From IMG/VR virus record IMGVR_UViG_2778261035_000005: a stretch of DNA of 64,000 bases. One strand, 5' to 3'. The DNA is from a virus (Duplodnaviria > Heunggongvirae > Uroviricota > Caudoviricetes). Below the pieces are notes generated by a model. The model was not told where the DNA came from. It made no database searches and was given only the letters and a program-made list of their open reading frames with translations. Numbering within the stretch: the stretch's first letter is position 1; each line of letters starts with the position of its first letter. Shown here one piece after another: positions 4,301 through 38,818 of this stretch. The position numbers were made by a program, and so were the translations under genes.

Positions 4301-6049
4301 GCTGCAAACGCTAAACAATTGGAAGTGTTGCAGTCAACGGTAGAGGAAAGCTCCGCTGCCGTTGAAGAAATGAAAAAGACGGTTGCAGAGGTCGATCGTG
4401 CAAGTGCAGAACTGACTACGAACATTGAGGCTTTGGCCAAAACAAATATTGACCTGGCTCTTCGTCAAGATGAAGACCAGCACAAGCAGATGGTCAATAA
4501 CGCGAAGATCGCAACAACACAGAAAACCTTTGCTGATGATATGTCTGCAATGGCCACGAAGGTTGAGGAAATTCGCGTAGAAATTGGCGAAGACATTAAG
4601 GCCAGTATTCTGGAAGAGTCCACCGCTCGTGCCGATGGCGATGAAGCGTTGGCAAAGCGTGTCACTCAGCTGCAATCTAAGTTTGAAGGAGATATCAGCG
4701 CGGCGATTAGTACAGAGCAGGAGGCTCGTACATCTGCCGATGAAGCTCTGACGACACAGATCACTCAGCTTGAGTCGAAAGTAAGCAACGATATCGTCGC
4801 AGCTATTAAGGAAGAGCAAGAAGCCCGAGCAACGGAAGATTCGGCTCTGGCAAGCCAGATCACCCAACTTCAGGCAAAGGTTGATGATGATATTTCTGCT
4901 GCAATACGTAGTGAGCAGGAGGCCCGAGCAAGCGGGGACTCTGCGTTAGCCAAACAAATAAACCAGCTTCAGTCAAAGGTTGACGGTGATATATCCGCGG
5001 CCATCACTCAGGAGCAGGAGGCCAGAGCAAGTGCTGACCAGGCGCTCTCACGAGAAATTAACAGCCTGCGAGCACAAACCGGAACTGATATTGCCGCAGC
5101 GGTTGCTGTAGAGACAAAAGCAAGGACTGATGCCGATAGTGCATTGTCTACCCAGATTACGTCTCTTACAGCAAAAGCTAATGATCTCGAGGCGTCTCTT
5201 GCCAGAGAAACAACGGCTCGTGCAGATGGTGATACCGCTTTAACAAAAGAGGTTTCAAGTTTAAAAGCACAGACAGCGAAAGATATTAGTGCGGCCGTTG
5301 CAGTTGAAACGCAGGCTCGAACTGATGCTGACTCGGCGTTGTCGTCTCAGATCACCAAGCTGACCTCTCAATACAAAGAGGATATTAAAGCGGCTGTAGC
5401 AACCGAAACGAAAACGCGTACAGAGCAAGATGCTGCATTGGCGACTCAAATCACAAACTTAGAGTCTCAAACAGCAGCCAACATTTCTGCGGCGGTCACA
5501 ACTGAAACGACAGCGAGAACGCAGGCAGATAATGCTCTAAGTGGGCGAATCGATACTCTGAAAGCAGAGGTGGATGGAAATACCGCGACAATTCAACAGC
5601 AGGCAACAGCCATTGCTGATACCAACAAAAAAGTCTCAACCGCGTGGACGTTGAAAATGGAGACTTCAACGAGCGGAGGGCAGAAGTATGTTGCCGGTAT
5701 TGCGCTTGGTATCGACACCACCGGTCTTTCTCAGTTTTTGGTGCAGGCGGACAGATTTGGTTTGGTCAACTCTGTTAACGGGAAGATCACCACGCCATTT
5801 GTTATCGAAAACAGTATCGCCTATATGAATGGTGCGTATATCAAGGATGGCACAATCACCAATGCAAAAGTAGGCGATCTGCAATCTACCAATTTTGTTA
5901 GCGGTAGATCTGGATGGCGGTTCGGCAAAAATGGAACGCTTGAGATTAACGGTAATAGCGGCGGCAATGGGCGATTGGTCATAAATGGTCAGCGGATTGA
6001 CGTTTATGACGATAACAACGTCCTCCGAGTGAGAATTGGCCTTCTGTGA
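1322..6049 (+). CDS. Tip attachment / host specificity protein J-like (central tail fibre)
   Basis: About 1575 aa. N-terminus (FIAGAGGKKSSKSS...) resembles lambda J; long coiled-coil region with about ten tandem 33-aa repeats; distinct C-terminal domain. ATG at 1322 preferred over the TTG at 1316 in the ORF track. Confidence 0.85.
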   Translation: MEQFKKKKLPLFIAGAGGKKSSKSSSRTPVEADDTVNSRAMAAILDLLGEGVIGGLVNGARSIFIDDLPIVNEDGSSNFSGITWDFRDGSQDQTPMSGFDFVETPKSVNIQLKKTHYVTVSIDNDEADRVRVIMKFPSLRSIDKKTGDTNGTTVEYKFQIANGDSTFVDVVAEGEKSVGIKLTAKKTSVYYRSYELKLPKPGRAYKVRVVRITDDNSSQYLYNDTWVDSIGEIVDTPMNYPNSVLVGLKVNSEQFGSTMPSRSYLVRGLKIRVPSNYNESSNTYAGVWDGTFKLLSSSNPAWILFDLLTNARYGLGQYVSESMIDLGQLYQIGRYCDEEVDDGFGGKEKRFAINTQITSRQDAYRLIQDIAGAFRGMVFWAGGMVNIMQDSPSDPVMMFTNSNVKDGLFTYKGSARKDRPSVALVTYNNKEDGYKQNIEYVEDQDAMRRYGERKTEVVAFGCTSRGQAHRVGLWLLYTARMESDVITFTAGLDASFLMPGETVLIQNKYRAGKRNSGRIVAFTKNSVTLDAPVSLAKGGCFIRILNQEGKIVERDVLETGENITKVTFSKSLSSAETPVLNGVWTITEPDLEPMRVRIVNIAQGETPGSFDITAVENNPSKYEAIDNGATLIPQNTTVLDPTYSKPSNLQITEGTYLSSPGNLSVKLTATWEGKSPEYWISWRRSDENNVSNWQSARVTEEQYEIVNVAENGRYDFQLYAVSFNGKKTEIISTVYQVLGTMTPPDAPTSLTVVGDYRNVILNWVNPDSVDLDHINVYASQTNNLDTAKLIAESASTTFTHAGLGDSETWYYWVRASNKRGMLSPPNSNLGTEATTRDVLSFLTGKITSSELGQALLEDINSKVSQEAVDELNEHINQSVESLEGSVNDVKEDIAELDKQFSDNLADFEIKFNERSDALENAQTELKGEVSATIDKVNEAFEKIDATDAAIVEIENTVSEHDKALANTVEAIKAARDEAAALIAKESEARVEGDAANAKQLEVLQSTVEESSAAVEEMKKTVAEVDRASAELTTNIEALAKTNIDLALRQDEDQHKQMVNNAKIATTQKTFADDMSAMATKVEEIRVEIGEDIKASILEESTARADGDEALAKRVTQLQSKFEGDISAAISTEQEARTSADEALTTQITQLESKVSNDIVAAIKEEQEARATEDSALASQITQLQAKVDDDISAAIRSEQEARASGDSALAKQINQLQSKVDGDISAAITQEQEARASADQALSREINSLRAQTGTDIAAAVAVETKARTDADSALSTQITSLTAKANDLEASLARETTARADGDTALTKEVSSLKAQTAKDISAAVAVETQARTDADSALSSQITKLTSQYKEDIKAAVATETKTRTEQDAALATQITNLESQTAANISAAVTTETTARTQADNALSGRIDTLKAEVDGNTATIQQQATAIADTNKKVSTAWTLKMETSTSGGQKYVAGIALGIDTTGLSQFLVQADRFGLVNSVNGKITTPFVIENSIAYMNGAYIKDGTITNAKVGDLQSTNFVSGRSGWRFGKNGTLEINGNSGGNGRLVINGQRIDVYDDNNVLRVRIGLL
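4655..5635 (+). repeat. Tandem 99-bp (33-aa) coiled-coil repeats inside the J-like gene
   Basis: About ten successive units of the form DISAAI..EQEAR..AD.AL..QITQL.SKV read directly from the translation. Confidence 0.8.
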
Positions 6050-6142
6050 TAGTAGAAAAAAATATTTACATCGGTAAAAATAAGTAGGTACTTACTTTAT
6101 GGTGGGCAAGGATAGCCCACCAAATCAAGGAGCATATTCAAC

Positions 6143-9100
6143 ATGTGGTACAGGGAAGGTACTATCACATTTACACAGGGTAGCAATACCCTCGTTGGTG
6201 TTGGAACAGCCTGGAACGTAACAGCTAATGGTGTGTTGCCGGGCATGATCGTCATTGGCCCCGACAATAAGCTGTATGAGATCAAGCGCGTAACCAGTGA
6301 TACAAACATTGTTCTCTCAGAACCTTATACCGGCGAAACTCAGTCTGAAGTTCCGTGCCGAATCATTACGACCTATGAAGGTGACTTAACGCAGTTTAGC
6401 GCGCGCTTTACTGCACTAATGTCGCGTATGTCGGCTGATTCCAAGTCTATGCGCAGTTGGTTGACTGCTCTTGATGAGGTGACAATCGAGCGTGAAGACG
6501 GTACAGAAGTGACCGTTAAGCCGCTAATGCAGATCGTCAACGAGCACAACGAAAACGTTGAGTGGTATAAAAATAACACTGACGCGATTGATGCTGCTGG
6601 CGACAAAGCTCGTGAGGCGGCGGCCAGTGCTGCCGCAGCGGCAGAAAGCGCCAATACCGCTGGAGAAAAAGCATCTCAAGCGTCTCAAAGTGCATCCGCT
6701 GCGGCATCCTCACAAAGTGCTGCAAGTGCGAGTGCAACTGCTGCGAAAAGATCTGAAACGAACGCAGAGGCCGCCAAAGAAGCGGCAGCAGAATCAGCGT
6801 CTGTAGCATCGACCAAAGCATCGGAGGCTGCAATATCTGCGTCCAGTGCCTCTGCATCTAAGGATGCAGCCAAAGCATCAGAGACTAACGCTTCATCGAG
6901 TGCAAACGCGGCTGCATCATCGGCAACAGAAGCTGCAAATTCCTCTAAGGCAGCAAAAACGTCAGAGGCAAACGCAAAAGCATCTGAAACGGCAGCCGAA
7001 CAGAGTGCATCGTCTGCAAACAGTTCGAAATCTGCGGCAGAAGCGTCAGCAAGTGCAGCCTCAGCAAGTGCGGATAGTGCTTCATCAAGTGCAACAGCGG
7101 CAGGAAAATCTGCGGATAGCGCATTGTCATCCGCGACAACAGCTACCACAAAAGCGACAGAGGCGACGAGTCAGGCTACAGCTGCTAAAAATTCAGCATC
7201 GGCAGCAAAAACCTCTGAAACAAATGCAAAGACCTCAGAAGACAATGCTGCTTCCTCTAAGGCGGCAGCTGCTGAATCTGCAAGTTCTGCGTCTGCATCA
7301 GCCACCTCAGCATCCGCTTCAAAAGATGAGGCGACCAAGCAGGCATCAGCAGCGAAGAGCAGTGCTTCAACGGCATCCACGAAGGCAACAGAGGCGGCAG
7401 GCAGTGCGACAGCTGCATCTCAGAGCAAAACTGCTGCTGAATCCGCTGCGACCCGTGCGGAAGCTGCCGCTGATCGTGCTGAAGAGATTGCCGGTGCAGT
7501 TGCGATGGAAGACGCAAGCCTTACCACCAAAGGTGTTGTGAAACTTAGCAGTGCTGTCGACAGCACCAGTGAATCGCTGGCCGCAACGCCAAAAGCAGTT
7601 AAAGCAGCCAATGACAATGCGAATAGCAGGGTGCCATCTAACCGAAAAGTTAACGGTAAAGCACTGACTGCGGATATCACATTAACGCCGAAAGATATTG
7701 GTACTTTAAATTCAGTAACGATGTCTTTCTCTGGCGGGGCTGGGTGGTTCAAACTGGCTACGGTTACCATGCCACAAGCGAGTTCCATCGTTTACATCGC
7801 ATTGATTGGTGGCGCTGGTTACAACGTCGGCTCCCCACATCAGGCAGGCATTTCAGAACTGGTTCTACGAGCAGGCAATGGAAACCCCAAAGGGATTACA
7901 GGTGCTTTGTGGAAGCGTACAGCTGTCGGATTAACGAATTTCGCCTGGATCAACACATCCGGCGATACATATGATATTTACGTTGAGATTGGCAATTATG
8001 CGACGAGTGTAAATATCCATTGGGATTGTACTGCAAATGCGACAGTTTCTATTTATACATCGCCAACATATTCAGCGAGTAAGCCTTCCAGCGTTACCGA
8101 TGGTGTTGTTTATACGATGTATAGCACACATCAGAAACCGACGCCGTTAGATATTGGTGCACTGCCAACAACCGGAGGAACAGTTTCAGGTCCGTTGTCT
8201 GTTACTGGTGGGATCACCGGAACATTAAATGGTAATGCAAGTACAGCAACGAAATTACAGACGGCAAGATCTATCGGTGGAGTTGGTTTCGACGGTTCTG
8301 CCAATATTAATCTTCCAGGTGTAAACACTACGGGTAATCAGAACACCACTGGTAATGCCGCAACTGCTACAAAACTACAGACGGCAAGAACTATCGGCGG
8401 CGTGAGCTTTGATGGTACTGCAAATATTAATTTGCCAGGTGTTAATACGACTGGTAATCAGAATACAACAGGTAATGCGGCTACTGCTACGAAGTTGCAG
8501 ACTGCGCGTACTATTAATGGGGTGTCGTTTGACGGTTCGGCAAATATTTCCTTGTCACCAGCAAATATAGGTTGCCCAGCATCTCCTACTGGTTGGTTAA
8601 CTACAGGAAGTAATGGCGGAGCAATAACAACAGCCCAGTTAGTGACGTTATTGCAAAATAATGGAGCCTTTAACACAAAGTCATGGATTGCTCGATGTGC
8701 GTGGGCCTATGCCAATAGTGCAACCATACCAAATAGTGAAACTGGTTGTGGCGTTATTCCATTGGCAGGAGCTGTTATAGAGGTATTTAATAACGGTAGT
8801 AGCTCAAACAATTATACGATCCGTATAACAACGGCCACAACGACGAGTGTCTCTGGTGCTCTCACTAATGCGGAGTTTATCTATGTATTTAATGGCACAG
8901 ATTATTCTCCAGGATGGCGAAGAGTATATAACACGAAAAACAAACCAACAGCCTCTGATGTCGGTGCATTACCTCTTACCGGTGGTACATTATCTGGAGG
9001 TTTGACATCTTCTGGCGAGATCATTTCAAAATATGCAAATGGTTTCCGCATTGCTTACGGTAGCTTTGGGTTCTTTATCCGTAATGATGGGTCGAACACA

Positions 9101-11823: not shown

Positions 11824-12345
11824 TTATTCTTCGAACAATTTTTCGATAGATTTTGTAGGATAGAACAAAGAACGCTCGTTGTTACCAACCAGCTGGATAA
11901 AGCCTAAACTTTTATAAAACGCCTTGGCTTTGTCATTTAACGCCTCAACGAAAAGTCCATGAATGCCTACAGCAAGAGATGCATTGTACACAACGCGCAT
12001 TGCATGTGTTACAAGCATTGAGCCAAATCCTTGACCTTGAAGGGACTTGTCCAAAGCCAGCCTACCCAAAGTAACACTTGGAACATTCCGATAAGGTACC
12101 TTCTTTTGCTGGCTTCTTGAAGGTAAGGACTCCTTTTCAAAGCAGCTACCTGACAAAGTGTAATACCCTAACACTTTTGGTCTGCCTTCTTTCGTGCAAA
12201 GCACATAAGCGCGAAGAATTTTTCCCTCATGCTGCCTTTTTAAGTGGTTGGTTAAAAAGGCATTTAGTGATTCTTCACCGCAATCAAAACCATTCAAATC
12301 ATAATCTTTCTCTCCAGAGAAAATTTCTATCTTTATATTATCCAC
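11824..12345 (-). CDS. GNAT-family acetyltransferase toxin (TacT/AtaT/KacT-like)
   Basis: 173 aa with GNAT-toxin layout (FDCG...YYTLS...VTLGRLALD...QGFG...FY...GF); GTG start 7 nt after the stop of the upstream antitoxin gene. Confidence 0.8.
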   Translation of the reverse strand: MDNIKIEIFSGEKDYDLNGFDCGEESLNAFLTNHLKRQHEGKILRAYVLCTKEGRPKVLGYYTLSGSCFEKESLPSRSQQKKVPYRNVPSVTLGRLALDKSLQGQGFGSMLVTHAMRVVYNASLAVGIHGLFVEALNDKAKAFYKSLGFIQLVGNNERSLFYPTKSIEKLFEE

Positions 12346-12352
12346 GAGTAAA

Positions 12353-12622
12353 CTACTCCATGCTTTTCAGACGATCAGCAGCTCGTTTCAGCTTGTCGTT
12401 CGGTGCCGGAGGATTGCTTATAGCGTCCATAACCAGATTCCAGGATTCTTCATTCAGAACTAGTCTACGGTGTTGCTCTATAACTTTCACGGCACGTTCA
12501 GATGCACTGCTAACCATAAACTGAGTAATGCTCTGGTTAGACATTGCGGCAGCTTCCTCGATGATGCTTTTATCGTCATCGGTTAATCTCAAATCGATGC
12601 GCTGCTTTTTTAGTGCTGACAT
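12353..12622 (-). CDS. DUF1778-type ribbon-helix-helix antitoxin (TacA/AtaR-like)
   Basis: 89 aa immediately upstream of the GNAT toxin on the same strand; ATG at 12622 preceded by AGGAGG. Confidence 0.75.
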   Translation of the reverse strand: MSALKKQRIDLRLTDDDKSIIEEAAAMSNQSITQFMVSSASERAVKVIEQHRRLVLNEESWNLVMDAISNPPAPNDKLKRAADRLKSME

Positions 12623-12632
12623 GTATTCCTCC

Positions 12633-12660
12633 TGATGGCCGTGATGTAGGAAGGCCATCA
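12633..12660. promoter_or_regulatory. Palindrome TGATGGCC-N12-GGCCATCA, candidate toxin-antitoxin operator
   Basis: Perfect 8-bp inverted arms overlapping the RBS/promoter region of the antitoxin gene. Confidence 0.4.
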
Positions 12661-12890
12661 ATCTCCTCTGTTCAAACTGAGTTTTCGACTCAAAAATTAC
12701 TTTAAAAGGCTATAGCCCATTACGTGTGCATTATCAAATTGTGTACGGCATATCACCGTACTTGTAATATAGAGGTCATTGTTACTTTTTTCAACAGACA
12801 AATACAAGCTATGATTGCCAATTGTTAATCACAACCTACCATTTAACCTTTACACCGCAGCCGTAGGCATTTAGGCTATATCACATATAA

Positions 12891-12940: not shown

Positions 12941-13609
12941 ATGACCAAGATCTTTGTGGTTGGCGGCACAAAGGGCGGGCCTGGCAAATCCACCGTTGCC
13001 CAGCAAATTGCCGTTTGCCTGAAAGTCAAAAAGAAGAAGAAGGTTTATATCACTGATATAGATATTCAGCGCACGACAACAAGCTGGTGTGAAGACCGTC
13101 GACAGAACGAAGACCTTGAGCTGATTCCTTTTGCATACGTTCAGGATGACATCATTAAGCACCTAAAATCGCTTCAGGGTAGAGCTGAGTTTGTAGTGGT
13201 AGATGCTGGTGGCTTTGACTCCGAAATTCAGCGACAAGCGATGCTGATGGCCGACGTTATCATTATCCCGCTTCGTCCTAAGCGTCGTGATTTGAAATCT
13301 CTGCGTGACATCGATCCTATTATCGACAATGTTCGTAATGTAAACGATAAAGTGAAGGTCCGCGCGGTCATGAACCAGTGCCCGGCTTTGCCATCACAAG
13401 TGTCTCGCATTCTGGCGGCTAAAGAGATTGTCGAGACGTTTGGCATCGAGTCTGCGCCAGTCAATCTATATAACCGCAACGTCTACGATGATGCGGAAGA
13501 GTCTGGTCGTTCTATCTTTGAAATGACCGGTAGCGAGCGCGACAAAAAGGCGGAAGCCGAGTTTGAAGAATTTGTAGATTATCTGTTGAGTCTGGAGGAA
13601 GAAGAATAA
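12941..13609 (+). CDS. parA: ParA-type partition ATPase
   Basis: Deviant Walker A GGTKGGPGKST at the N-terminus; about 220 aa; followed by a small centromere-binding-type gene. Confidence 0.85.
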   Translation: MTKIFVVGGTKGGPGKSTVAQQIAVCLKVKKKKKVYITDIDIQRTTTSWCEDRRQNEDLELIPFAYVQDDIIKHLKSLQGRAEFVVVDAGGFDSEIQRQAMLMADVIIIPLRPKRRDLKSLRDIDPIIDNVRNVNDKVKVRAVMNQCPALPSQVSRILAAKEIVETFGIESAPVNLYNRNVYDDAEESGRSIFEMTGSERDKKAEAEFEEFVDYLLSLEEEE

Positions 13610-13968
13610 TGTCCATGAAAATGGGTGACCTAGCAAAGCGCAAAGAGCCTGATGCACCGGCCAAGAACACAACTCCTTTGCGCCAACCAGTCAGACCACA
13701 GGGACGCCCGACTCGTGGCAAAGAGAAAATTAAAAGCCGCACAATGTCACTGGAAGACGAATACTTCGAACTGCTGGAGATGATGAAGTTCATCCCTCGC
13801 TTCGAGAAATTCACCCGCTCTGATGTGATTCGTGCTGCTATTTTCCATCTTGCGGAGAAGACACCGCAGGAAATCGAGGACATCGTAAAGCTGAACGAGG
13901 CGATCACAGCTGCCGATGTCACGATGCGTACCGATGAAATTAAACGCGAGTTGATGAAGAAAGGTTAA
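13609..13968 (+). CDS. ParG-like small centromere-binding protein
   Basis: 119 aa with basic disordered N-terminus and ribbon-helix-helix-like C-terminus; start overlaps the parA stop. Confidence 0.5.
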   Translation: MSMKMGDLAKRKEPDAPAKNTTPLRQPVRPQGRPTRGKEKIKSRTMSLEDEYFELLEMMKFIPRFEKFTRSDVIRAAIFHLAEKTPQEIEDIVKLNEAITAADVTMRTDEIKRELMKKG

Positions 13969-13969
13969 T

Positions 13970-13998
13970 AATGTGGGCTGTCTAGCCCACATTATTTT
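13970..13998 (+). terminator. Rho-independent terminator after the partition operon
   Basis: Perfect 10-bp stem AATGTGGGCT/AGCCCACATT with 4-nt loop, followed by ATTTTAATT. Confidence 0.7.
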
Positions 13999-14019
13999 AA
14001 TTAAAGTGGAGTGATAATT

Positions 14020-14772
14020 ATGCATTCGTTAGTATTTGCATTTAAAAACATACTCAAGAATGTTATAAACATACTAGGGATGTTAAATATTTTTTTGTCT
14101 GTGAGGGTGAGGAGAAAAGATATAAAAGATAAATTAAAGGAACTTAACAAAGAAAAAGAACAATTAAAAAGCGAAGAAATTATTATTGATTTATACAAGA
14201 AAAAACTCGCATCTAGCAAGGGGAAAGCTAATGATAAAATCAAAGGAAAAATAATTCACTATATTATTGCTAGAGAGTTGGGGAATGATCCTGATAATGA
14301 AGATTTGCGACATAATCTTTTTACAAAGATAAAAGAATCAGAAGAACAGGTTGAAGTTCTGGTTCATCAAAGAGAAGTAAGTGAGCAGGCGAACAAAAAA
14401 GAAACGGTTGTCAATTTATTTTTATTGTATGAAAAAAATAAATTGTTTAAAGCTAAGGGGTTGGCTGTGTTTCTTATAGTTATAAACTTAATTATAGTTG
14501 CGACTCTCGATCTTCCAGCTTGGTCATTGATTATAAGTTTTTTTATTCTCTCTTTGATTATGTTGAAAGATCAGATACTTACTATTCGTGTCTCTAAAGG
14601 ATATTTTGGCACAAGTGCGTATGAAGCGGTTCAATTGCTTAAATTCATCAGAGAAAATTCAGACAAATTTGACTCAGATGATAATGACGGTAGCCCACGA
14701 CGGATATTGAATCCGAAGGGAACAACAAAAAAATCAGACAACCTATTCGATAAAGGGTGGCAAAATGTTTGA
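14020..14772 (+). CDS. Hypothetical membrane protein, AT-rich gene
   Basis: 250 aa; N-terminal TM helix, Lys/Glu-rich coiled-coil-like region, two central TM helices; GGAG RBS before the ATG at 14020; no recognisable family. Confidence 0.55.
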   Translation: MHSLVFAFKNILKNVINILGMLNIFLSVRVRRKDIKDKLKELNKEKEQLKSEEIIIDLYKKKLASSKGKANDKIKGKIIHYIIARELGNDPDNEDLRHNLFTKIKESEEQVEVLVHQREVSEQANKKETVVNLFLLYEKNKLFKAKGLAVFLIVINLIIVATLDLPAWSLIISFFILSLIMLKDQILTIRVSKGYFGTSAYEAVQLLKFIRENSDKFDSDDNDGSPRRILNPKGTTKKSDNLFDKGWQNV

Positions 14773-15187
14773 CCTTGACGCCATCACTAAGTTCTTAAAT
14801 CAGTGTTTTGATCTACTTTTGCTCAAGCAGCCTTTAAGAACTGTTTTCGGAATACTGATTGGTTTCATTATTTTTGTTTTTGTTTACACGTTTAGGTTTG
14901 CGATAGCTCAAGATTTTTATGAAATAGATGGCGTGCATTACGCTGCATGTTTCGTCATCGGTGTTTTAGTTGTTCACACAAGAACATTTTTTGACGTTAT
15001 CAAGGGCACCGCAGTTGATGAAGAAATAGATAGTATGATCAGAGTTATTACGAAGCAGCCACACCTATCTAACCATCAAAAAAACATAATGATTGCTGAA
15101 ATACTTCAAAAAGAAATTGCAGCCATAAGTCAAAAGAGATTGGATAAAGTTGCACAAGAAATAACGGAGAAAAAGACAACTGATTAA
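14765..15187 (+). CDS. Hypothetical membrane protein, AT-rich gene
   Basis: 140 aa with two TM helices; start overlaps the stop of the preceding gene (ATGTTTGA), indicating an operon. Confidence 0.55.
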   Translation: MFDLDAITKFLNQCFDLLLLKQPLRTVFGILIGFIIFVFVYTFRFAIAQDFYEIDGVHYAACFVIGVLVVHTRTFFDVIKGTAVDEEIDSMIRVITKQPHLSNHQKNIMIAEILQKEIAAISQKRLDKVAQEITEKKTTD

Positions 15188-15195
15188 TTTAATTA

Positions 15196-15256
15196 CCTGT
15201 TTCTGTATATAAATAATAAGTAACTTATTAAATATATATACGGAAGCAGGTCTTTT
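15196..15256 (+). terminator. Long-stem rho-independent terminator (GCCTGCTT family)
   Basis: About 16-bp stem CCTGTTTCTGTATATA / TATATACGGAAGCAGG (two G-U wobbles) around an AT-rich loop, then TCTTTT; related copies at 61365 and 63129. Confidence 0.6.
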
Positions 15257-15367
15257 AAAAGACACCCACCAGAACAACTCCCTTCCGTTTCCACTTCCAA
15301 AAACTGCCACCAGTCGCTATCATCCGCTCATTGTGATAAGTAAGTAACTACCTACCAGGTGAGCCAC

Positions 15368-16108
15368 ATGAGCCAAATCTTTTTCGATACCATCGACAAC
15401 AACCAGTACGACTTCATGACAGAGTGGAATACCGCTGTTATGGACAAGTGGGTTGCTGAAAACATTGGTTTGTCGCGCTGCAAAGACGAGGCTGAACTCT
15501 TCGAGACGAAGTGGTTTGATTACCGCGACATGCATCCTCTCATGGCCACCTGCCTTTTTACGGAGGCATACAAACGTCAGTACTCAAATATCATGCTGAC
15601 GCACGGTCGCGAACACTTTGAAACAGCTCCGTTCACCACCGGGTTAAAACGCCTGCCTTATCAGGAGTTGTCGACTGCCAATAAAACGTCTCTATGGAAA
15701 GCACGCCAGTTTGCTGACCGCTATTGCTGCTCATACGACTACTTTATCTCCACCGTTCTTTCCGCAGCTGCACGACGGCTGTGGGACAAGCTGCCGCGCC
15801 CACAGCATTTATGGCAGCCAGAACTGATTGAGATATTTGAAGAGAAATTAGCCAGACGCGCAACAACCCGTCTGGATGACTCTCTGGTTAGCTTTAAGCA
15901 TATGGGAGACATGCAGTTCAACCCGATTCAGGAAAGCTATTTTGAATGGATTCTGGAGCGTTTGCGCACCATCCCTCGCAGTAAGCGCATACGCGCAATT
16001 TTCTCCGCTATCTGGCTAATGGAAATCGTTCCAGAGCGCCTTATTTCCGCCCACTTTCCAGAAGAACTGGAAGAAGCACGGCGGTTTATTGATCCCCTAT
16101 CTAATTAA
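15368..16108 (+). CDS. Hypothetical protein upstream of the helicase
   Basis: ORF of about 246 aa; ATG at 15368 preferred over the GTG at 15359; no recognisable motif. Confidence 0.5.
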   Translation: MSQIFFDTIDNNQYDFMTEWNTAVMDKWVAENIGLSRCKDEAELFETKWFDYRDMHPLMATCLFTEAYKRQYSNIMLTHGREHFETAPFTTGLKRLPYQELSTANKTSLWKARQFADRYCCSYDYFISTVLSAAARRLWDKLPRPQHLWQPELIEIFEEKLARRATTRLDDSLVSFKHMGDMQFNPIQESYFEWILERLRTIPRSKRIRAIFSAIWLMEIVPERLISAHFPEELEEARRFIDPLSN

Positions 16109-17573: not shown

Positions 17574-18755
17574 ATGAGCCTTTATGTTATATCAACATTT
17601 AGGTTGGTAACAATATTGCCTGTTAAAAGTGGAATTATCGTGAGCGAGCTGAAAGAGTTAATTACCGAATTAGATTTTGAACAATGGTTGGACACTGAAG
17701 GTATCGTTTATCGACGTGGAGGCGTGAGTACTCGCGGTCGTGAAGTGAATATCAAGGAGTGTCCGGTATGCGGCAGCTCCAACTGGAAGGTATATTTCAA
17801 TCTGACCAGTGGCGTCGGTAAATGCTTCGCTGGTGATCATCCCGAAGAGATTCAGTTCAATAAGCTGGTCTTCCTCAAGCACTACAGCGGCAAATCACGA
17901 CGACAGTTCGAGGAATATGTGCAGAACGCCCTTCTTTCCCAGGGGTGGGCACCAAAGAAAGAAGAGCTAGTGCTTGCAAGCACAGTCGAGTTAGAGGGGC
18001 CAGTTGCACTCCCTCGTCATTACGAACTTCCTATAGATGGCCGTCTTCCAGACTATCTGGTTGAACGAAATATATCGCCTGAAATGGCAAAGTATTTTGA
18101 CCTACGATACTGCGTCGAAGGTAAGCACGCCTATGTAGATCCGTATACAGATCAGGTTAAAGGACAGATATTCGATATGCGAATACTGATACCGGTTTAC
18201 GATCTGGATGGGGTAATGAAGACATTTCAGGGACGAGACATTACCGGTACAGCAGAACGCCGCTACCTCTTTCCTATGCAGCTTCCAGCTTCAGGTAAGT
18301 TTCTCTACAACGGCTATAATGCAGTCGGCAAACAGACTGTAGTTGTCTGTGAGGGGGCGTTCGATGTTATGGGGGTTAAACGAGCTATTTTTGACGAAGA
18401 AACATTACGTGATTACGTGGAACCAATAGGAACGTTCGGGATGCATCTATCTGGTAACACCACTCAGGATGCAGAAGATCAGTTAGGCGCGTTCCTGACG
18501 CTCAAGGCGCGTGGGTTACGTAATGTGATCATGATGTGGGATAGTGAAAAGCAAGCTATACGAAACACTATGGCCGCAGCCAGGCGACTGACCAGTATCG
18601 GTCTTAATGTGAAAATTGCATGTTTGGGCGAGGAAGGACTCGACCCCGGCGATGCGACCCCGGGGCAGATTATCAAAGCCTACTATTGCGCAAAACCTTA
18701 CTCACGACAGCTTGAACTTTTAAGCAAGGTAAAAGGCATAGCAGCATTAGTTTGA
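17574..18755 (+). CDS. DNA primase (zinc ribbon plus TOPRIM)
   Basis: CPVCGSS...C zinc-binding motif and TOPRIM-like VVVCEGAFD / MMWDSE; ATG at 17574 follows the conserved RBS context, upstream hairpin at 17508-17532. Confidence 0.7.
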   Translation: MSLYVISTFRLVTILPVKSGIIVSELKELITELDFEQWLDTEGIVYRRGGVSTRGREVNIKECPVCGSSNWKVYFNLTSGVGKCFAGDHPEEIQFNKLVFLKHYSGKSRRQFEEYVQNALLSQGWAPKKEELVLASTVELEGPVALPRHYELPIDGRLPDYLVERNISPEMAKYFDLRYCVEGKHAYVDPYTDQVKGQIFDMRILIPVYDLDGVMKTFQGRDITGTAERRYLFPMQLPASGKFLYNGYNAVGKQTVVVCEGAFDVMGVKRAIFDEETLRDYVEPIGTFGMHLSGNTTQDAEDQLGAFLTLKARGLRNVIMMWDSEKQAIRNTMAAARRLTSIGLNVKIACLGEEGLDPGDATPGQIIKAYYCAKPYSRQLELLSKVKGIAALV

Positions 18756-19892
18756 ACCAGTATTAGTCACGTACACATTGACCGAAAATGATTTAACTTC
18801 TGTGTTGAAGTTGTCAGTCATTACCGCGAGGTAGGCATTCTTGGTATCTCTGAATTGCTTCAGTATGATTTGAACGTTATCGGTGCAAACAAACGAGGTA
18901 GCCAGATTGCCTCCTTTCTCTGAAAAATCCTTCAGGAAGGTGCAGTCAACTTTGCCATCATTAGCGGTGAAGGTAGCATCATCACCCTGCCAGGTAAATG
19001 TAGCGTTAACGCCCTTATCAATGGATTTAGCAATAAGTCGCTGGGTGGCGGATTTTGTTTTGGCTTTGGAAGCCGGCGCTCGATATTTGCCGCTTTCTTT
19101 CAGTTCTGCAATGTAATCACAGCCATTTTTATCTTCTTTATCACAAGCAGCCTGATAAAGCTCAGCTGCTTTTTTATAGTCTTTTTTAACCCCTTCACCA
19201 TACTCATACATAATGCCAAGATTTGTCATGGCATCGGCGTTTCCGAGTTCAGCAGCTTTTTTATACCACTTAATTGCTTCGGCATCGTTGCGTTTAACAC
19301 CTAAACCGTCATCGTATAAGGTGCCTAATGCGAACATGCCATCTGAACTACCTTGATCCGCCGCTTTTTTGTAATAAGTAAAAGCTTTTTTATAACTCTT
19401 TTGTACACCTTTACCATATTGGTAATACGCACCAAGAAGGTAGCTAGCTTTAACATACCCGGCATCAGAGGCTAGATTGAAGTATTTAATGGCGAGCGCA
19501 TGATCTACTTTACCAAGCATCCCCTTTTGATAAATAGCACCAAGATTGTTATAGGCTCTACCTTCACGAGCATCTCCCGCAAGTTTGTAGTACTCAACTG
19601 CTTTATTTAAGTCTTTATCTACACCCTCGCCAAATGTGTACATAACCCCAAGTGCATAATATGCTACTTTGTCTCCCTTTTCTGCAGCGAGATCAATCCA
19701 CTTCTTGGCCTCAACTACATCCTTATCAAAACCATTGATACCATCAAAATAATTTGTCCCTAACTCACTTTGTGCTGCGGTATCCCCTGCGGTAGCGGCT
19801 TCTATCAGCGTTTGTTTATTGTCTGCGTTAACGAATCCAGAGCTAAAAAGCAAAGTTAATGCCAGCAACGATGAAGATTTTATGTATTTCAT
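18747..19892 (-). CDS. Secreted Sel1-like repeat protein
   Basis: Signal peptide MKYIKSSSLLALTLLFSSGFVNA; at least six Sel1-type repeats (A..WY.KAA..G...A...LG.MY..G.GV); C-terminal ~110 aa of unknown fold. Confidence 0.75.
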   Translation of the reverse strand: MKYIKSSSLLALTLLFSSGFVNADNKQTLIEAATAGDTAAQSELGTNYFDGINGFDKDVVEAKKWIDLAAEKGDKVAYYALGVMYTFGEGVDKDLNKAVEYYKLAGDAREGRAYNNLGAIYQKGMLGKVDHALAIKYFNLASDAGYVKASYLLGAYYQYGKGVQKSYKKAFTYYKKAADQGSSDGMFALGTLYDDGLGVKRNDAEAIKWYKKAAELGNADAMTNLGIMYEYGEGVKKDYKKAAELYQAACDKEDKNGCDYIAELKESGKYRAPASKAKTKSATQRLIAKSIDKGVNATFTWQGDDATFTANDGKVDCTFLKDFSEKGGNLATSFVCTDNVQIILKQFRDTKNAYLAVMTDNFNTEVKSFSVNVYVTNTGSN

Positions 19893-20125
19893 ATTTTTTG
19901 TTCTGTTGATATAGGATGAACAGTTTAGACGCGGCAAGTGTCAAGTGTGCGAAAAATGGTACTTAAATTTAGTTAATATGTCAGCTTTGTTGATTTAGTT
20001 TATGGTCGGTAAAGTTACTAGGAAACTAATAACCATAAGAAATAGTACGTCATTTAATTATTGTGGCACTGCTCGTGTTTTGATTAACTAATACCTGCGA
20101 TAAATATAAATAAAGGGAAGCCAAC

Positions 20126-25525: not shown

Positions 25526-26806
25526 TTAATTAAAACCGAATGAATCAAGTTCTGCTTTTAATTTATCGACCATTTTTTCAACTTCAACCACAATTTCGCC
25601 AATCACCTTTTCTTTGTGTTGATTAGAGCTAAGTTCAAAATAGGCGTTATATAACGCATAACGAGACAGAAAATTTCTAATCTCATTAGCGGGTCTAATG
25701 GTGTAGCCATCGGTTAACACGATATCGGTCTGTCTAGAGTGCTTCTCGTTGAGTTTTATTAGCCGCTTTATCTGTTTTTCATCCTTGAGCACTATCACTT
25801 TGTTAGCTGCAATTTCAAGCTCCCAGCCGACAAAATAACGCAGCGTAGAATTTAATTTAGCCACTTCCTCGGCTGCAATTTCCATTTTCAGCTCAATGTA
25901 GTTTCGCATATGCATAGGTAGGTCATTAAATCTTTGCAGCAAATGTTGTCGGCAGGGGTTGTTGTAAGACCAAAGAACTGCAAACGTAAGCCTATGATAA
26001 CAGCTTATCGCATTGGTATTACAGGCCGAATCACCAACAATCATGCGATCAACATAAAACTCTACGTCTTTTTGGTATTCTTTATTGAATATATCAGCGG
26101 CATAGGTGTCCAGGTAATGAACTTTAGATATTGCATCTTCAAAGAAAAGTTCATTTTCGAAGAAGTTGTATTTGTTCAGGAGACGATAAAGTTTCTTTGC
26201 GTCGTAGGTTTTGCTATTGTCGACATTAAGACCAAAAATAGCAATCAGCAGACTTACTTTTGGACTAATGCTGTTGCGCAGTTGTTCTATGTAAGATCTC
26301 TTTTCACTATCCGCAGATGACGGCAGATAGAAGTCTTTATCTACATAATTTAGAATTAAAATAATGTGGTTAACATACTTAATATAAACAGGGTTTTTTG
26401 TTGCATAGTAATAAACGCCCTTGACGACTTTTATATTCAATTTCAAATTGTACTGACTATCATCCAGTAAGGTTTTGTTAACATCCTCAAGTAATTTATT
26501 ATGCTGTTCAAGTAATATGCCGTACCATTCCTTAAAAGAAGATTTTTTCATTTCAAGAAGCGAAGCCGCCGTCAGCCTGGTCGCTCTCATTGCCGCCTTT
26601 GCACTATGCCTTGCCTCATAAGCGGCCCATGCTGTGGCTAAAAAGGCAAGTGAAGTAGCAAGCGTACCTATAACCTCTACGTTTTCCTTGACGGTATCCC
26701 AGAAAATAATCATCACTGTCCCAAGTATGAGGATTAACAAAACAGGCATTTTATCAGTGTCTTTGGTTAATTTTGAAACTGAATGATACCTAATCGACCA
26801 TACCAT
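25526..26806 (-). CDS. Hypothetical membrane-anchored protein
   Basis: Up to 426 aa; two N-terminal TM helices and a ~350-aa cytoplasmic domain with no motif I can place; AT-rich codon usage; start may be 26749 instead. Confidence 0.55.
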   Translation of the reverse strand: MVWSIRYHSVSKLTKDTDKMPVLLILILGTVMIIFWDTVKENVEVIGTLATSLAFLATAWAAYEARHSAKAAMRATRLTAASLLEMKKSSFKEWYGILLEQHNKLLEDVNKTLLDDSQYNLKLNIKVVKGVYYYATKNPVYIKYVNHIILILNYVDKDFYLPSSADSEKRSYIEQLRNSISPKVSLLIAIFGLNVDNSKTYDAKKLYRLLNKYNFFENELFFEDAISKVHYLDTYAADIFNKEYQKDVEFYVDRMIVGDSACNTNAISCYHRLTFAVLWSYNNPCRQHLLQRFNDLPMHMRNYIELKMEIAAEEVAKLNSTLRYFVGWELEIAANKVIVLKDEKQIKRLIKLNEKHSRQTDIVLTDGYTIRPANEIRNFLSRYALYNAYFELSSNQHKEKVIGEIVVEVEKMVDKLKAELDSFGFN

Positions 26807-37691: not shown

Positions 37692-38675
37692 CTATCTTGA
37701 ATTAGGGGCTTTCTCTATAATTATTCGATTCAGAATATGATTACGATCACTGTATGGTTCGAAATGTTCTGCAATCGAGTATGAACCGACACTACGTGCG
37801 ACCACATCTTCAAAATATTCAAGGATTTTAGGTAGATACTTTTCATAATTTTGTGAACAAATCGACACTACAGGATCGAATTCTACTAATCGACGCTTTA
37901 CACGTATATGGTTATTTATTTTTTCATATTCATTCATCATAGAGTTCAAGTCTGGTACTACCCGCTCAGGGCTACACAGGTAGGTGCTGCGGTCATACTC
38001 GTCTCCGAATTTATCAAGAGGAACACCTATCTCTAGCAACGTCTTGTTTACTCGCTTTGCAAGCTCAATTATCTCTTTATCTTCTTCTGTAAGCCACATG
38101 TCGACCCACTTTTGTTTGTCTGCCCATTCAGACAGATAATCATCCTTATTGAAAGTTACAGGAGCACATCCAGAGTCACTTCTTAATGCTTTATCCTTTA
38201 TTTTAGAAATTGTTTTTTTATCTAAATGCTTCCAATAAATAGCAGGTTCGTCTAATTCATTATCATCGTGTAGGCATATCAAAACAATTACCACAGGAAA
38301 ATCACAACTTCCCCAATAGGTTATATTTTTATAAGGTATTTGTACGCTTAACCTTCTCTTCATTTTGCGTGAGGTGGTTTTTATCTGAACGCCGATAAAA
38401 AAACCTGTCGAAAGATTATTTTCATATATTTCAACCTGAGCATCCAATCCCATATCAATATCTAGCAATCGACAAGGCCATCTGAAATAACGAGAAATCC
38501 AATAGGCAAACAAGTACTCTCCAGCGTGTCCATCCGCACTGGTTTTCGGATATGTCATACCTTCAGTTTTATTCTTTTCTGCCGCTGGCTTTACAGACTT
38601 AGCTTTTGGGGGGAGGGCTGTTTTTTTAGTCGGCACTGACTTTGTTGCTTTGACTTGTTTGTTAGCCTTATCCAT
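37692..38675 (-). CDS. DUF4365-like protein (predicted PD-(D/E)xK-type fold), candidate defence gene
   Basis: GEYLFAYWISRYFRWPCRLLDIDMGLDAQVEIYENNLSTGFFIGVQIKTTS fits the DUF4365 pattern; Lys-rich N-terminus; ATG at 38675 preferred over the TTG at 38690. Confidence 0.55.
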   Translation of the reverse strand: MDKANKQVKATKSVPTKKTALPPKAKSVKPAAEKNKTEGMTYPKTSADGHAGEYLFAYWISRYFRWPCRLLDIDMGLDAQVEIYENNLSTGFFIGVQIKTTSRKMKRRLSVQIPYKNITYWGSCDFPVVIVLICLHDDNELDEPAIYWKHLDKKTISKIKDKALRSDSGCAPVTFNKDDYLSEWADKQKWVDMWLTEEDKEIIELAKRVNKTLLEIGVPLDKFGDEYDRSTYLCSPERVVPDLNSMMNEYEKINNHIRVKRRLVEFDPVVSICSQNYEKYLPKILEYFEDVVARSVGSYSIAEHFEPYSDRNHILNRIIIEKAPNSR

Positions 38676-38818
38676 TGGTTTTATTCTCAATTTGCTTTGC
38701 TCGGTGTGCCTCCTGATTCTGCACCTTAGCGCCGATACTGTCTACCGCCAATCATGACAGTAAAGCTCTATTTGTTTGATATAATCAGATACACGAAAGT
38801 AAGTTTGAGCATATCAAT

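Follow-up and report, generated by a model that had tools for sequence, protein, structure and literature searches.

What purpose is served by two short, AT-rich genes for membrane proteins that stand between the partition and the replication genes of a phage-plasmid, and whose place is taken by other cargo in close relatives? The pair, referred to here as genes A and B, lies in a stretch of 64,000 nucleotides of viral DNA (Caudoviricetes; IMG/VR record IMGVR_UViG_2778261035_000005), which we call the window. This stretch is an E. coli phage-plasmid of the SSU5-like kind, and it shares 96-98% identity with the Escherichia phages Cyrano, CMS-2020a and PhiR41_1, ~84% with SSU5 and 99.9% with plasmid pWP4-S18-ESBL-07_2. 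We found that A and B are a real, selected, obligate and horizontally exchanged two-gene membrane accessory (moron) module, and that the slot which holds it, directly downstream of the parB-like gene, is a cargo hotspot whose alternative occupants are known or candidate defence genes. From this company we lean, by a small margin, toward the view that A and B protect the lysogen against other phages in some way.

The slot is delimited by DNA alignments with five relatives, in which backbone homology is lost directly after the stop codon of the parB-like gene (13968) and regained at ~15196. The breakpoints are sharp (13968/13969 and ~15195/15196), and the swapped segment extends over 13969-~15195. 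The genes around it run in the order endolysin, spanins, a GNAT/TacA pair (minus strand), parA, parB-like gene, A, B, a gene for a 249-aa protein, DnaB-like helicase and primase. The conserved left flank consists of parA (12941-13609, plus strand; Pfam MipZ/AAA_31/CbiA) and, directly before the slot, the parB-like gene (13609-13968, plus strand), whose products are 82-100% identical across relatives; the right flank is the hypothetical gene upstream of the helicase (15359-16108, plus strand), and its 249-aa product, 85-99.6% identical in relatives, had no match in Pfam and PADLOC scans (PADLOC-DB v2.0.0, here and below).

Relatives whose flanking proteins are 98-100% identical hold different cargo between these flanks: a 564-aa P-loop NTPase (KAP-like; PADLOC PDC-S49, E 2e-22), a 255-aa GIY-YIG protein encoded on the minus strand (PD-T4-3, E 1e-23), in phage Cyrano a 267-aa DUF2971 protein (PDC-S31, E 3e-41), or A/B alleles of 41-42% identity. 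In SSU5 the slot has a diverged A/B pair together with a DUF2971 gene (PDC-S31, E 2e-33). The cassette is thus variable among relatives, and strict conservation at this position was not found; the flanks are matched by 715 plasmids, of which only 7 also match over the cassette itself. A census of 5426 complete E. coli genomes, made by whole-genome DNA matches with the position in the slot checked in representative loci only, gave the parAB backbone in 263 genomes, cargo of the PD-T4-3 type in 107, of the PDC-S49 type in 28 and of the PDC-S31 type in 21, against 7 genomes with the A/B allele of the window and one with a second A/B allele; all copies were plasmid-borne. A 2025 survey of phage-plasmids reported that SSU5-group elements carry PD-T4-3, PD-T7-5, PrrC and others (bioRxiv 10.1101/2025.09.12.675607). 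PD-T4-3, PDC-S31 and PDC-S49 thus share with A/B the exact same position between the parB-like gene and a conserved hairpin, whereas PD-T7-5 adjoins A/B in another element rather than replacing the pair; unlike A and B, which are membrane proteins with no enzymatic domain, all four are unrelated single soluble proteins of the nuclease or NTPase type. In one relative, Citrobacter plasmid pRHBSTW-00444_2, a mer (mercury resistance) operon comes right after A/B and DUF2971 cargo (5034-7408 of that locus), where the 249-aa gene and the helicase gene normally stand, so the slot or its edge also takes other insertions.

The sequence-only reading of this locus had described the two genes as a horizontally acquired, self-contained cassette at 14020-15256, far more AT-rich than its flanks and bounded by two terminators. 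The composition was borne out: the guanine-cytosine (GC) content over 13.8-15.4 kb is 0.29-0.37 and that of the neighbouring DNA 0.45-0.51, none of the other 64 one-kb bins of the window is as poor in GC as 14001-15000 (0.322; next lowest 0.383), and the pair itself stands at 0.327 against 0.461 in its flanks. The pair is AT-rich in 11 of the 11 contexts measured (0.31-0.38 vs 0.45-0.52 in the flanks). Horizontal acquisition is strongly supported by the hotspot with its sharp breakpoints, by the rarity of the allele (7 of the 263 E. coli genomes with the parAB backbone), and by the presence of the pair in three other kinds of element, described below. The extent of the cassette, on the other hand, has to be corrected to 13969-~15195, since the hairpin on its right is not part of it. 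This long AT-rich hairpin (CCTGTTTCTGTATATA...TATATACGGAAGCAGG, then TCTTTT; 15195-15252, plus strand; dG -26.1, z -7.05 vs shuffled controls) forms the right edge of the slot and is kept, independent of cargo, in 6/6 aligned relatives including SSU5, and therefore belongs to the conserved backbone; it could act as a terminator to protect the replication genes, or favour cassette exchange as a boundary for recombination. The hairpin on the left (13967-13996, plus strand), directly after the parB-like stop, has a perfect 13-bp stem with a GC core (GTGGGCT/AGCCCAC) and a U-rich tail, and folds with dG -18.5 kcal/mol (z -4.5 vs shuffled controls); a terminator scan flagged it on the minus strand only. 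It is likely a terminator or attenuator of parAB that belongs to the variable segment. Each cargo type has its own, different perfect GC-stem hairpin directly after the parB-like stop (in the window and in loci L003, L004 and L006), which suggests that a terminator-like element seems to travel with each cassette. Of the two proposed terminators, then, both are real hairpins, and the downstream one is backbone rather than cassette; nor is the cassette always insulated from the partition operon, for in the window a terminator-like hairpin follows parB, and in SSU5-type relatives the pair abuts parB without a terminator. A scan of 13400-15600 against Rfam returned a chance-level match only.

Gene A (14020-14772, plus strand; 250 aa, ATG start) and gene B (14765-15187, plus strand; 140 aa) are present as the two overlapping open reading frames first proposed, and the further proposal that both products are membrane proteins agrees with the prediction of two transmembrane helices in each. 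RefSeq calls the same two genes in the 99.9% identical plasmid (A, WP_021520118, 250 aa; B, WP_021520119, 140 aa). A Shine-Dalgarno sequence for A, GGAG at 14008-14011, was read from the sequence 8 nt before the ATG at 14020, and one for B, AGGG at 14754-14757, lies 7 nt before the ATG at 14765; a GTG at 14011, which would be an alternative start of A, falls within the Shine-Dalgarno sequence of that gene and was rejected as improbable. The start of B overlaps the stop of A by 8 nt, with the TGA of A and the ATG of B in ATGTTTGA, an arrangement that fits translational coupling. In protein A an amphipathic N-terminus and a Lys-rich (K/E-rich) cytoplasmic helical region (13% K, 7% E) precede a transmembrane hairpin (~147-165 and 168-189 by hydropathy), and the conserved parts are a juxtamembrane helix (KETVVNLFLLYEK) and a cytoplasmic C-domain, with R190, G194, G197 and E202 invariant or nearly so. 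The acidic DxDxDG stretch in the tail of A was considered by eye as a calcium-binding loop of the EF-hand type, and this was rejected because the spacing is unlike that of the canonical loop. Protein B has transmembrane helices at ~26-48 and ~58-79 (hydropathy), followed by a helical cytoplasmic tail of 60 aa. The two were also considered as paralogues, and this was rejected at an hhalign probability of 1%. Across the family, A has 4-5 K/R before the transmembrane hairpin, 2-4 after it and 0 in the short loop, and in B the first transmembrane helix is preceded by K/R and the loop is acidic; the positive-inside rule would make both proteins N-in/C-in, with nearly all of their conserved soluble sequence cytoplasmic and with tiny predicted periplasmic loops of roughly 5 and 10 residues. 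Both are matched over their full length by PHROGs families of unknown function, A by phrog_22270 (3e-115 over 12-250) and B by phrog_17322 (8e-69 over 1-136), and SSU5_035 and SSU5_036 match the same two.

That the two genes form a unit is apparent from their distribution. By tblastn, A was found in 74 plasmid records and B in 73, with identities of 31-100%; all are non-mobilizable, all listed but one are of 105-132 kb, and they come from Klebsiella, Escherichia, Enterobacter, Citrobacter, Cronobacter and Salmonella. The pair follows directly after the parB-like gene in all SSU5-like loci inspected, and in 36 of 36 close loci that hold A, searched with profiles of both proteins, B lies directly downstream and overlaps it; a B-profile match follows A in 8 of 9 remote viral or metagenomic loci as well, the contig of the ninth ending too early. 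A scan of species-representative genomes gave one locus, on an SSU5-like Buttiauxella contig. The ratio of nonsynonymous to synonymous substitution rates (dN/dS) is 0.08-0.21 for A and 0.06-0.26 for B, and purifying selection thus maintains both. Nevertheless the pair is far from universal, B being present in ~10% of SSU5-like plasmids (73/715) and the pair lacking in ~90%, and its alleles are deeply diverged: between E. coli p009_B and the window, ParA, ParB, the 249-aa protein and DnaB are 98-99.6% identical, as against 41% for A and 42% for B. Since the backbone is far more alike than the cargo, these must be old alleles swapped into one slot. Two loci hold split genes. In pKPHS1 (NC_016838; 2742-3508 of locus L007) A is frameshifted into open reading frames of 61 and 144 aa, of which the 144-aa piece retains the whole conserved core, and related Klebsiella contigs (L023-L025) have an intact frame of ~260 codons; the split could come from faulty sequencing or from decay, or the short form could be functional. 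On a P2-like contig (8698-9114 of locus L050), B was called as pieces of 100 aa and 29 aa in place of the usual ~136 aa, which may be due to a frameshift or an assembly error.

Outside the SSU5-like slot, the pair occurs in three further cargo contexts, which makes four different mobile-element settings in all. In P2-like phages it lies between gpS and gpV, the orf30 position, which is one of the three classical AT-rich moron regions of P2 (PMC6823313); A and B thus occupy a slot of the P2 morons (orf30 slot; old, tin, fun(Z)), but the slot of Rousset et al. is gpA-gpQ (old/tin) rather than S-V, and A and B are unrelated to Old or Tin. In a P2/HP1-like prophage of K. oxytoca the pair stands at the chromosome-proximal end, after the tail genes. 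To our knowledge there is no functional survey of the S-V slot cargo of P2-like phages. The third setting is an integrative island of Enterobacter/K. aerogenes with genes for an integrase, AlpA, Bro-N and a D5-type primase, a content from which it looks like a satellite or a phage-inducible chromosomal island (PICI); A/B lie at its cargo end, with a PD-T7-5 homologue (7e-131) directly after them. Four such islands (L013-L016) hold a different gene each between integrase and alpA (~2100-2800; 221, 318, 198 and 267 aa, the last with DUF6387), and this interval looks like a second variable slot.

Protein A is moreover a member of a much wider family. An exhaustive profile search with 23 A sequences gave 585 cluster representatives at E<=1e-3, of which 127 reach E<=1e-10, the clusters being made at 50% identity and 585 being a lower bound. 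What aligns in remote matches is the part from the juxtamembrane helix through the transmembrane hairpin to the C-terminal domain, with a consensus of roughly T-V/I-x-x-L-F/M-L, two transmembrane helices, and E/S-Y/F-R-I/V-x-K-G-x-F-G-T/S-N-x-x-E-A. The N-termini vary freely between coils and one to several extra transmembrane helices, as is seen already among the close alleles, where this module is a K/E-rich helix in the window and two extra transmembrane helices in SSU5-type alleles. Pfam found no shared family among 55 remote members, and the named ones, from Pantoea, Lelliottia and a cyanobacterium among others, are all hypothetical proteins.

An anti-phage or exclusion role agrees with all of this context, by association only, and is unproven. 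Its abortive-infection version, in which the pair acts on the membrane, is the one that we tentatively favour, while holding it possible rather than probable, because what is conserved lies in the cytoplasm, because the N-terminal module varies, and because transmembrane proteins of hotspots have been seen as effectors: P2/P4 hotspots hold defence systems, and the transmembrane proteins there are viewed as abortive-infection effectors (PMC9122126). Under such circumstances A and B would be inner-membrane proteins acting together as one complex, an interaction that we infer; the cytoplasmic parts of A would sense a cue linked to infection, and the transmembrane bundle would then permeabilise or depolarise the inner membrane. 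The outcome would be abortive infection, by a logic like that of RexAB and of the transmembrane effectors of other defence systems. Transcription would be by read-through from the constitutively needed parAB operon, with expression in the plasmid-prophage state. The parAB genes are the likely source of such read-through into the slot: in SSU5-type relatives the start of A is found 1-2 nt downstream of the parB stop, no hairpin intervenes, and A is therefore co-transcribed with parAB. We infer that A/B are transcribed from parAB, i.e., in the plasmid-prophage state, and this transcription may be attenuated in the allele of the window. Curing K. pneumoniae of the SSU5-like plasmid p2 raised phage plating 10-100 fold, the gene not being mapped, and pKp1 (CP086286) is similar in sequence to p2 (CP085480) (PMC8969562); we found that pKp1 carries an A/B allele.

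Several findings weigh against this interpretation. The function of A/B rests on genomic association only (guilt by association), and moron slots also carry cargo unrelated to defence; for the K. pneumoniae plasmid phenotype, the authors themselves suspected a restriction-modification system (PMC8969562). Neither protein could be linked to a function by homology, by a structural match or by a published phenotype, and we found no paper on WP_021520118, WP_021520119, YP_006906667, YP_006906668 or SSU5_035/036. In agreement with the sequence-only reading, neither protein could be assigned to a known family, as neither has a significant match in Pfam, NCBIfam or PADLOC; the best PADLOC scores are all non-significant (PDC-M02B 0.0012, LeoBC 0.009, JetC 0.01), the sub-significant matches all fall on K/E-rich helical stretches, and no sensor or enzymatic domain is recognisable in the family scans. 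Profile searches of PDB sequences, made from 9-sequence alignments of the two proteins, had no match below E=0.5. AlphaFold2 (AF2) models of both are all-helical and of low confidence (A, from a 23-sequence alignment, pLDDT 55.9 and pTM 0.29, the transmembrane hairpin alone reaching 70-77; B, from 4 usable sequences, pLDDT 59.4), and Foldseek searches of PDB with these low-confidence models gave no match at E<=0.001, so that the structural comparison is uninformative rather than negative; the same low-confidence models gave no structural homology to a housekeeping or virion protein. The top Foldseek matches, HlyD, EmrA and EssB, reflect long helices only and were disregarded. The gene-wide dN/dS values of A and B carry no signal of an arms race. 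Finally, no sigma-70-like site was found upstream of A, and in the window a terminator-like hairpin separates parB and A; expression in the lysogen is for these two reasons only assumed.

The likeness of a membrane-acting pair to RexA and RexB of lambda is that of a two-gene, prophage-expressed module with a membrane component on a temperate element, for which a cytoplasmic trigger leading to loss of membrane potential has been proposed. In that pair one partner, RexA, is soluble and the other, RexB, spans the membrane with four helices; A and B, by contrast, are both membrane-anchored, with two helices each in the core. No sequence relationship to A/B was found, PHROGs, Pfam and NCBIfam giving no function-labelled family, and neither homology nor the four-helix channel topology of a RexAB-type system is present. 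Kiwa (KwaA/KwaB) and Zorya (ZorA/ZorB) comprise membrane proteins with long helical cytoplasmic parts that are thought to couple the detection of infection to defence. They too are two-component membrane systems, a likeness that we offer as a lead only; A/B have no PADLOC match to them, and sizes, number of transmembrane helices and partner domains differ. The function of A/B may thus be likened to that of RexAB, of other membrane-effector abortive-infection modules, or of superinfection-exclusion (Sie) proteins, yet by sequence the pair is a member of none of these.

Alternatively, the A/B complex could block an inner-membrane step of DNA injection with no cell death, by the logic of T4 Imm, P22 SieA and HK97 gp15 and possibly against related phage-plasmids or P2-like phages. 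Superinfection exclusion at DNA entry is the main rival to abortive infection, and we consider it unlikely. Like T4 Imm/Sp, P22 SieA/SieB and HK97 gp15, which are small, non-essential inner-membrane phage proteins that protect the host from other phages, A and B are small inner-membrane proteins of temperate elements, and they stand in moron slots; alleles ~40% identical in near-identical backbones would fit a polymorphism of specificity, and coupling to parAB suggests expression in the lysogen. However, their periplasmic exposure is tiny (loops of ~5 and ~10 residues), the C-domain of A and the tail of B being cytoplasmic, and where the known determinants are single genes, A/B are an obligate pair whose conserved parts are mostly cytoplasmic. 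Searches of PHROGs and Pfam revealed no homology to the exclusion families (Imm, SieA/B, gp15), PHROGs giving two families of unknown function only and none that is function-labelled.

A further alternative to abortive infection is a lysogenic conversion unrelated to phages, in which the pair would provide tolerance of envelope stress, a small-solute channel or a factor of host interaction. Moron slots are diverse, the window also encodes a secreted-type protein with Sel1 repeats, a mer transposon is inserted in the same slot of one relative, and the A family reaches free-living taxa such as a cyanobacterium. Against this, every other identifiable occupant of the slot matches a known or candidate defence family, the pair adjoins PD-T7-5 in the integrative island, and no transporter or enzyme signature was found in A/B by Pfam, remote members of the A family included; we give this explanation little credence.

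It is somewhat less probable again that A/B are an addiction or stability module, in which one membrane protein (e.g., a holin-like B) is toxic and the other neutralises it, giving post-segregational killing alongside parAB and TacT/TacA. In its favour, A/B are an overlapping two-gene operon that adjoins partition genes and a GNAT/TacA pair and that is co-transcribed with parAB in SSU5-type relatives, and B with its two helices in N-in/C-in orientation resembles small membrane toxins and class II holins. Yet the pair occurs as well in integrated prophages and in an integrative island, where killing upon plasmid loss is irrelevant, and it is missing from ~90% of SSU5-like plasmids; the partners, each an integral membrane protein and 136-290 aa long, differ in this from known type II modules, and neither has a toxin or antitoxin domain in Pfam or NCBIfam.

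We regard as quite improbable, and as the least probable of these explanations, an accessory role in the phage life cycle, whether holin/antiholin-like timing or inhibition of lysis or a membrane factor for replication or partition. In its favour, B has a class-II-holin-like topology, the pair in P2-like phages lies ~1 kb downstream of the lysis genes, and that in SSU5-like elements lies between partition and replication genes. Against it, B is 140 aa long and present in 73/715 plasmids; in the window a distance of 2.2 kb, which holds a toxin-antitoxin pair and parAB, separates A/B from the endolysin/spanin genes; gpR and gpS stand between the pair and the lysis cassette in P2-like phages; defence genes of the nuclease and NTPase kinds can take the place of the pair at the slot; and it is missing from ~90% of SSU5-like elements and from most P2-like phages and so does not serve a core function.

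Other parts of the window hold accessory genes of their own. The interval from the spanin genes to parA forms a second variable slot. In the window it contains a TacT/KacT-like toxin-antitoxin pair (11824-12661, minus strand), in which the toxin is a GNAT acetyltransferase of 173 aa and the antitoxin is of the TacA1 type (102 aa; Pfam 8.6e-26); elsewhere it holds two unrelated hypothetical genes (several relatives) or a HEPN-domain gene (a Cronobacter plasmid). A 332-aa gene at 37692-38690 (minus strand; GC 0.376) has a DUF4365 domain (9.6e-16) and a PADLOC match to an Argonaute-associated component of the restriction-endonuclease type (1.7e-10), and is probably another cargo gene of the defence type. 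A 426-aa gene at 25526-26806 (minus strand; GC 0.376), with a sub-threshold match to Pfam putAbiC (E 9e-4; 20.1 bits vs a cut-off of 22), may be a further accessory or abortive-infection candidate. The Sel1-repeat protein mentioned above, of 396 aa (18747-19937, minus strand), has six repeats (2e-52) and a hydrophobic, signal-like N-terminus; its gene stands in moderately AT-rich DNA and runs against the direction of the replication genes.

Among clinical E. coli, Klebsiella, Shigella and Salmonella, phage-plasmids of the SSU5-like kind are common, and the slot downstream of parB gives a simple guide to where in them new anti-phage genes may be sought. The A/B cassette is compact (1.2 kb) and directly testable, and candidates of such a type are numerous. 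It is conceivable, although we stop somewhat short of thinking it probable, that A/B are the founding example of a widespread but so far unrecognised two-protein membrane immunity system without an enzymatic domain, in which one small complex both senses infection and kills the cell or excludes the phage, and in which the diverged alleles correspond to different phage specificities. If an anti-phage function is true, the known systems would gain a two-gene one that is domain-less, purely membrane-based and backed by a broad unannotated family, and A/B may help to explain differences in allele between otherwise identical plasmids; lysogens that carry the pair might then resist therapeutic phages, which would have a bearing on phage therapy.

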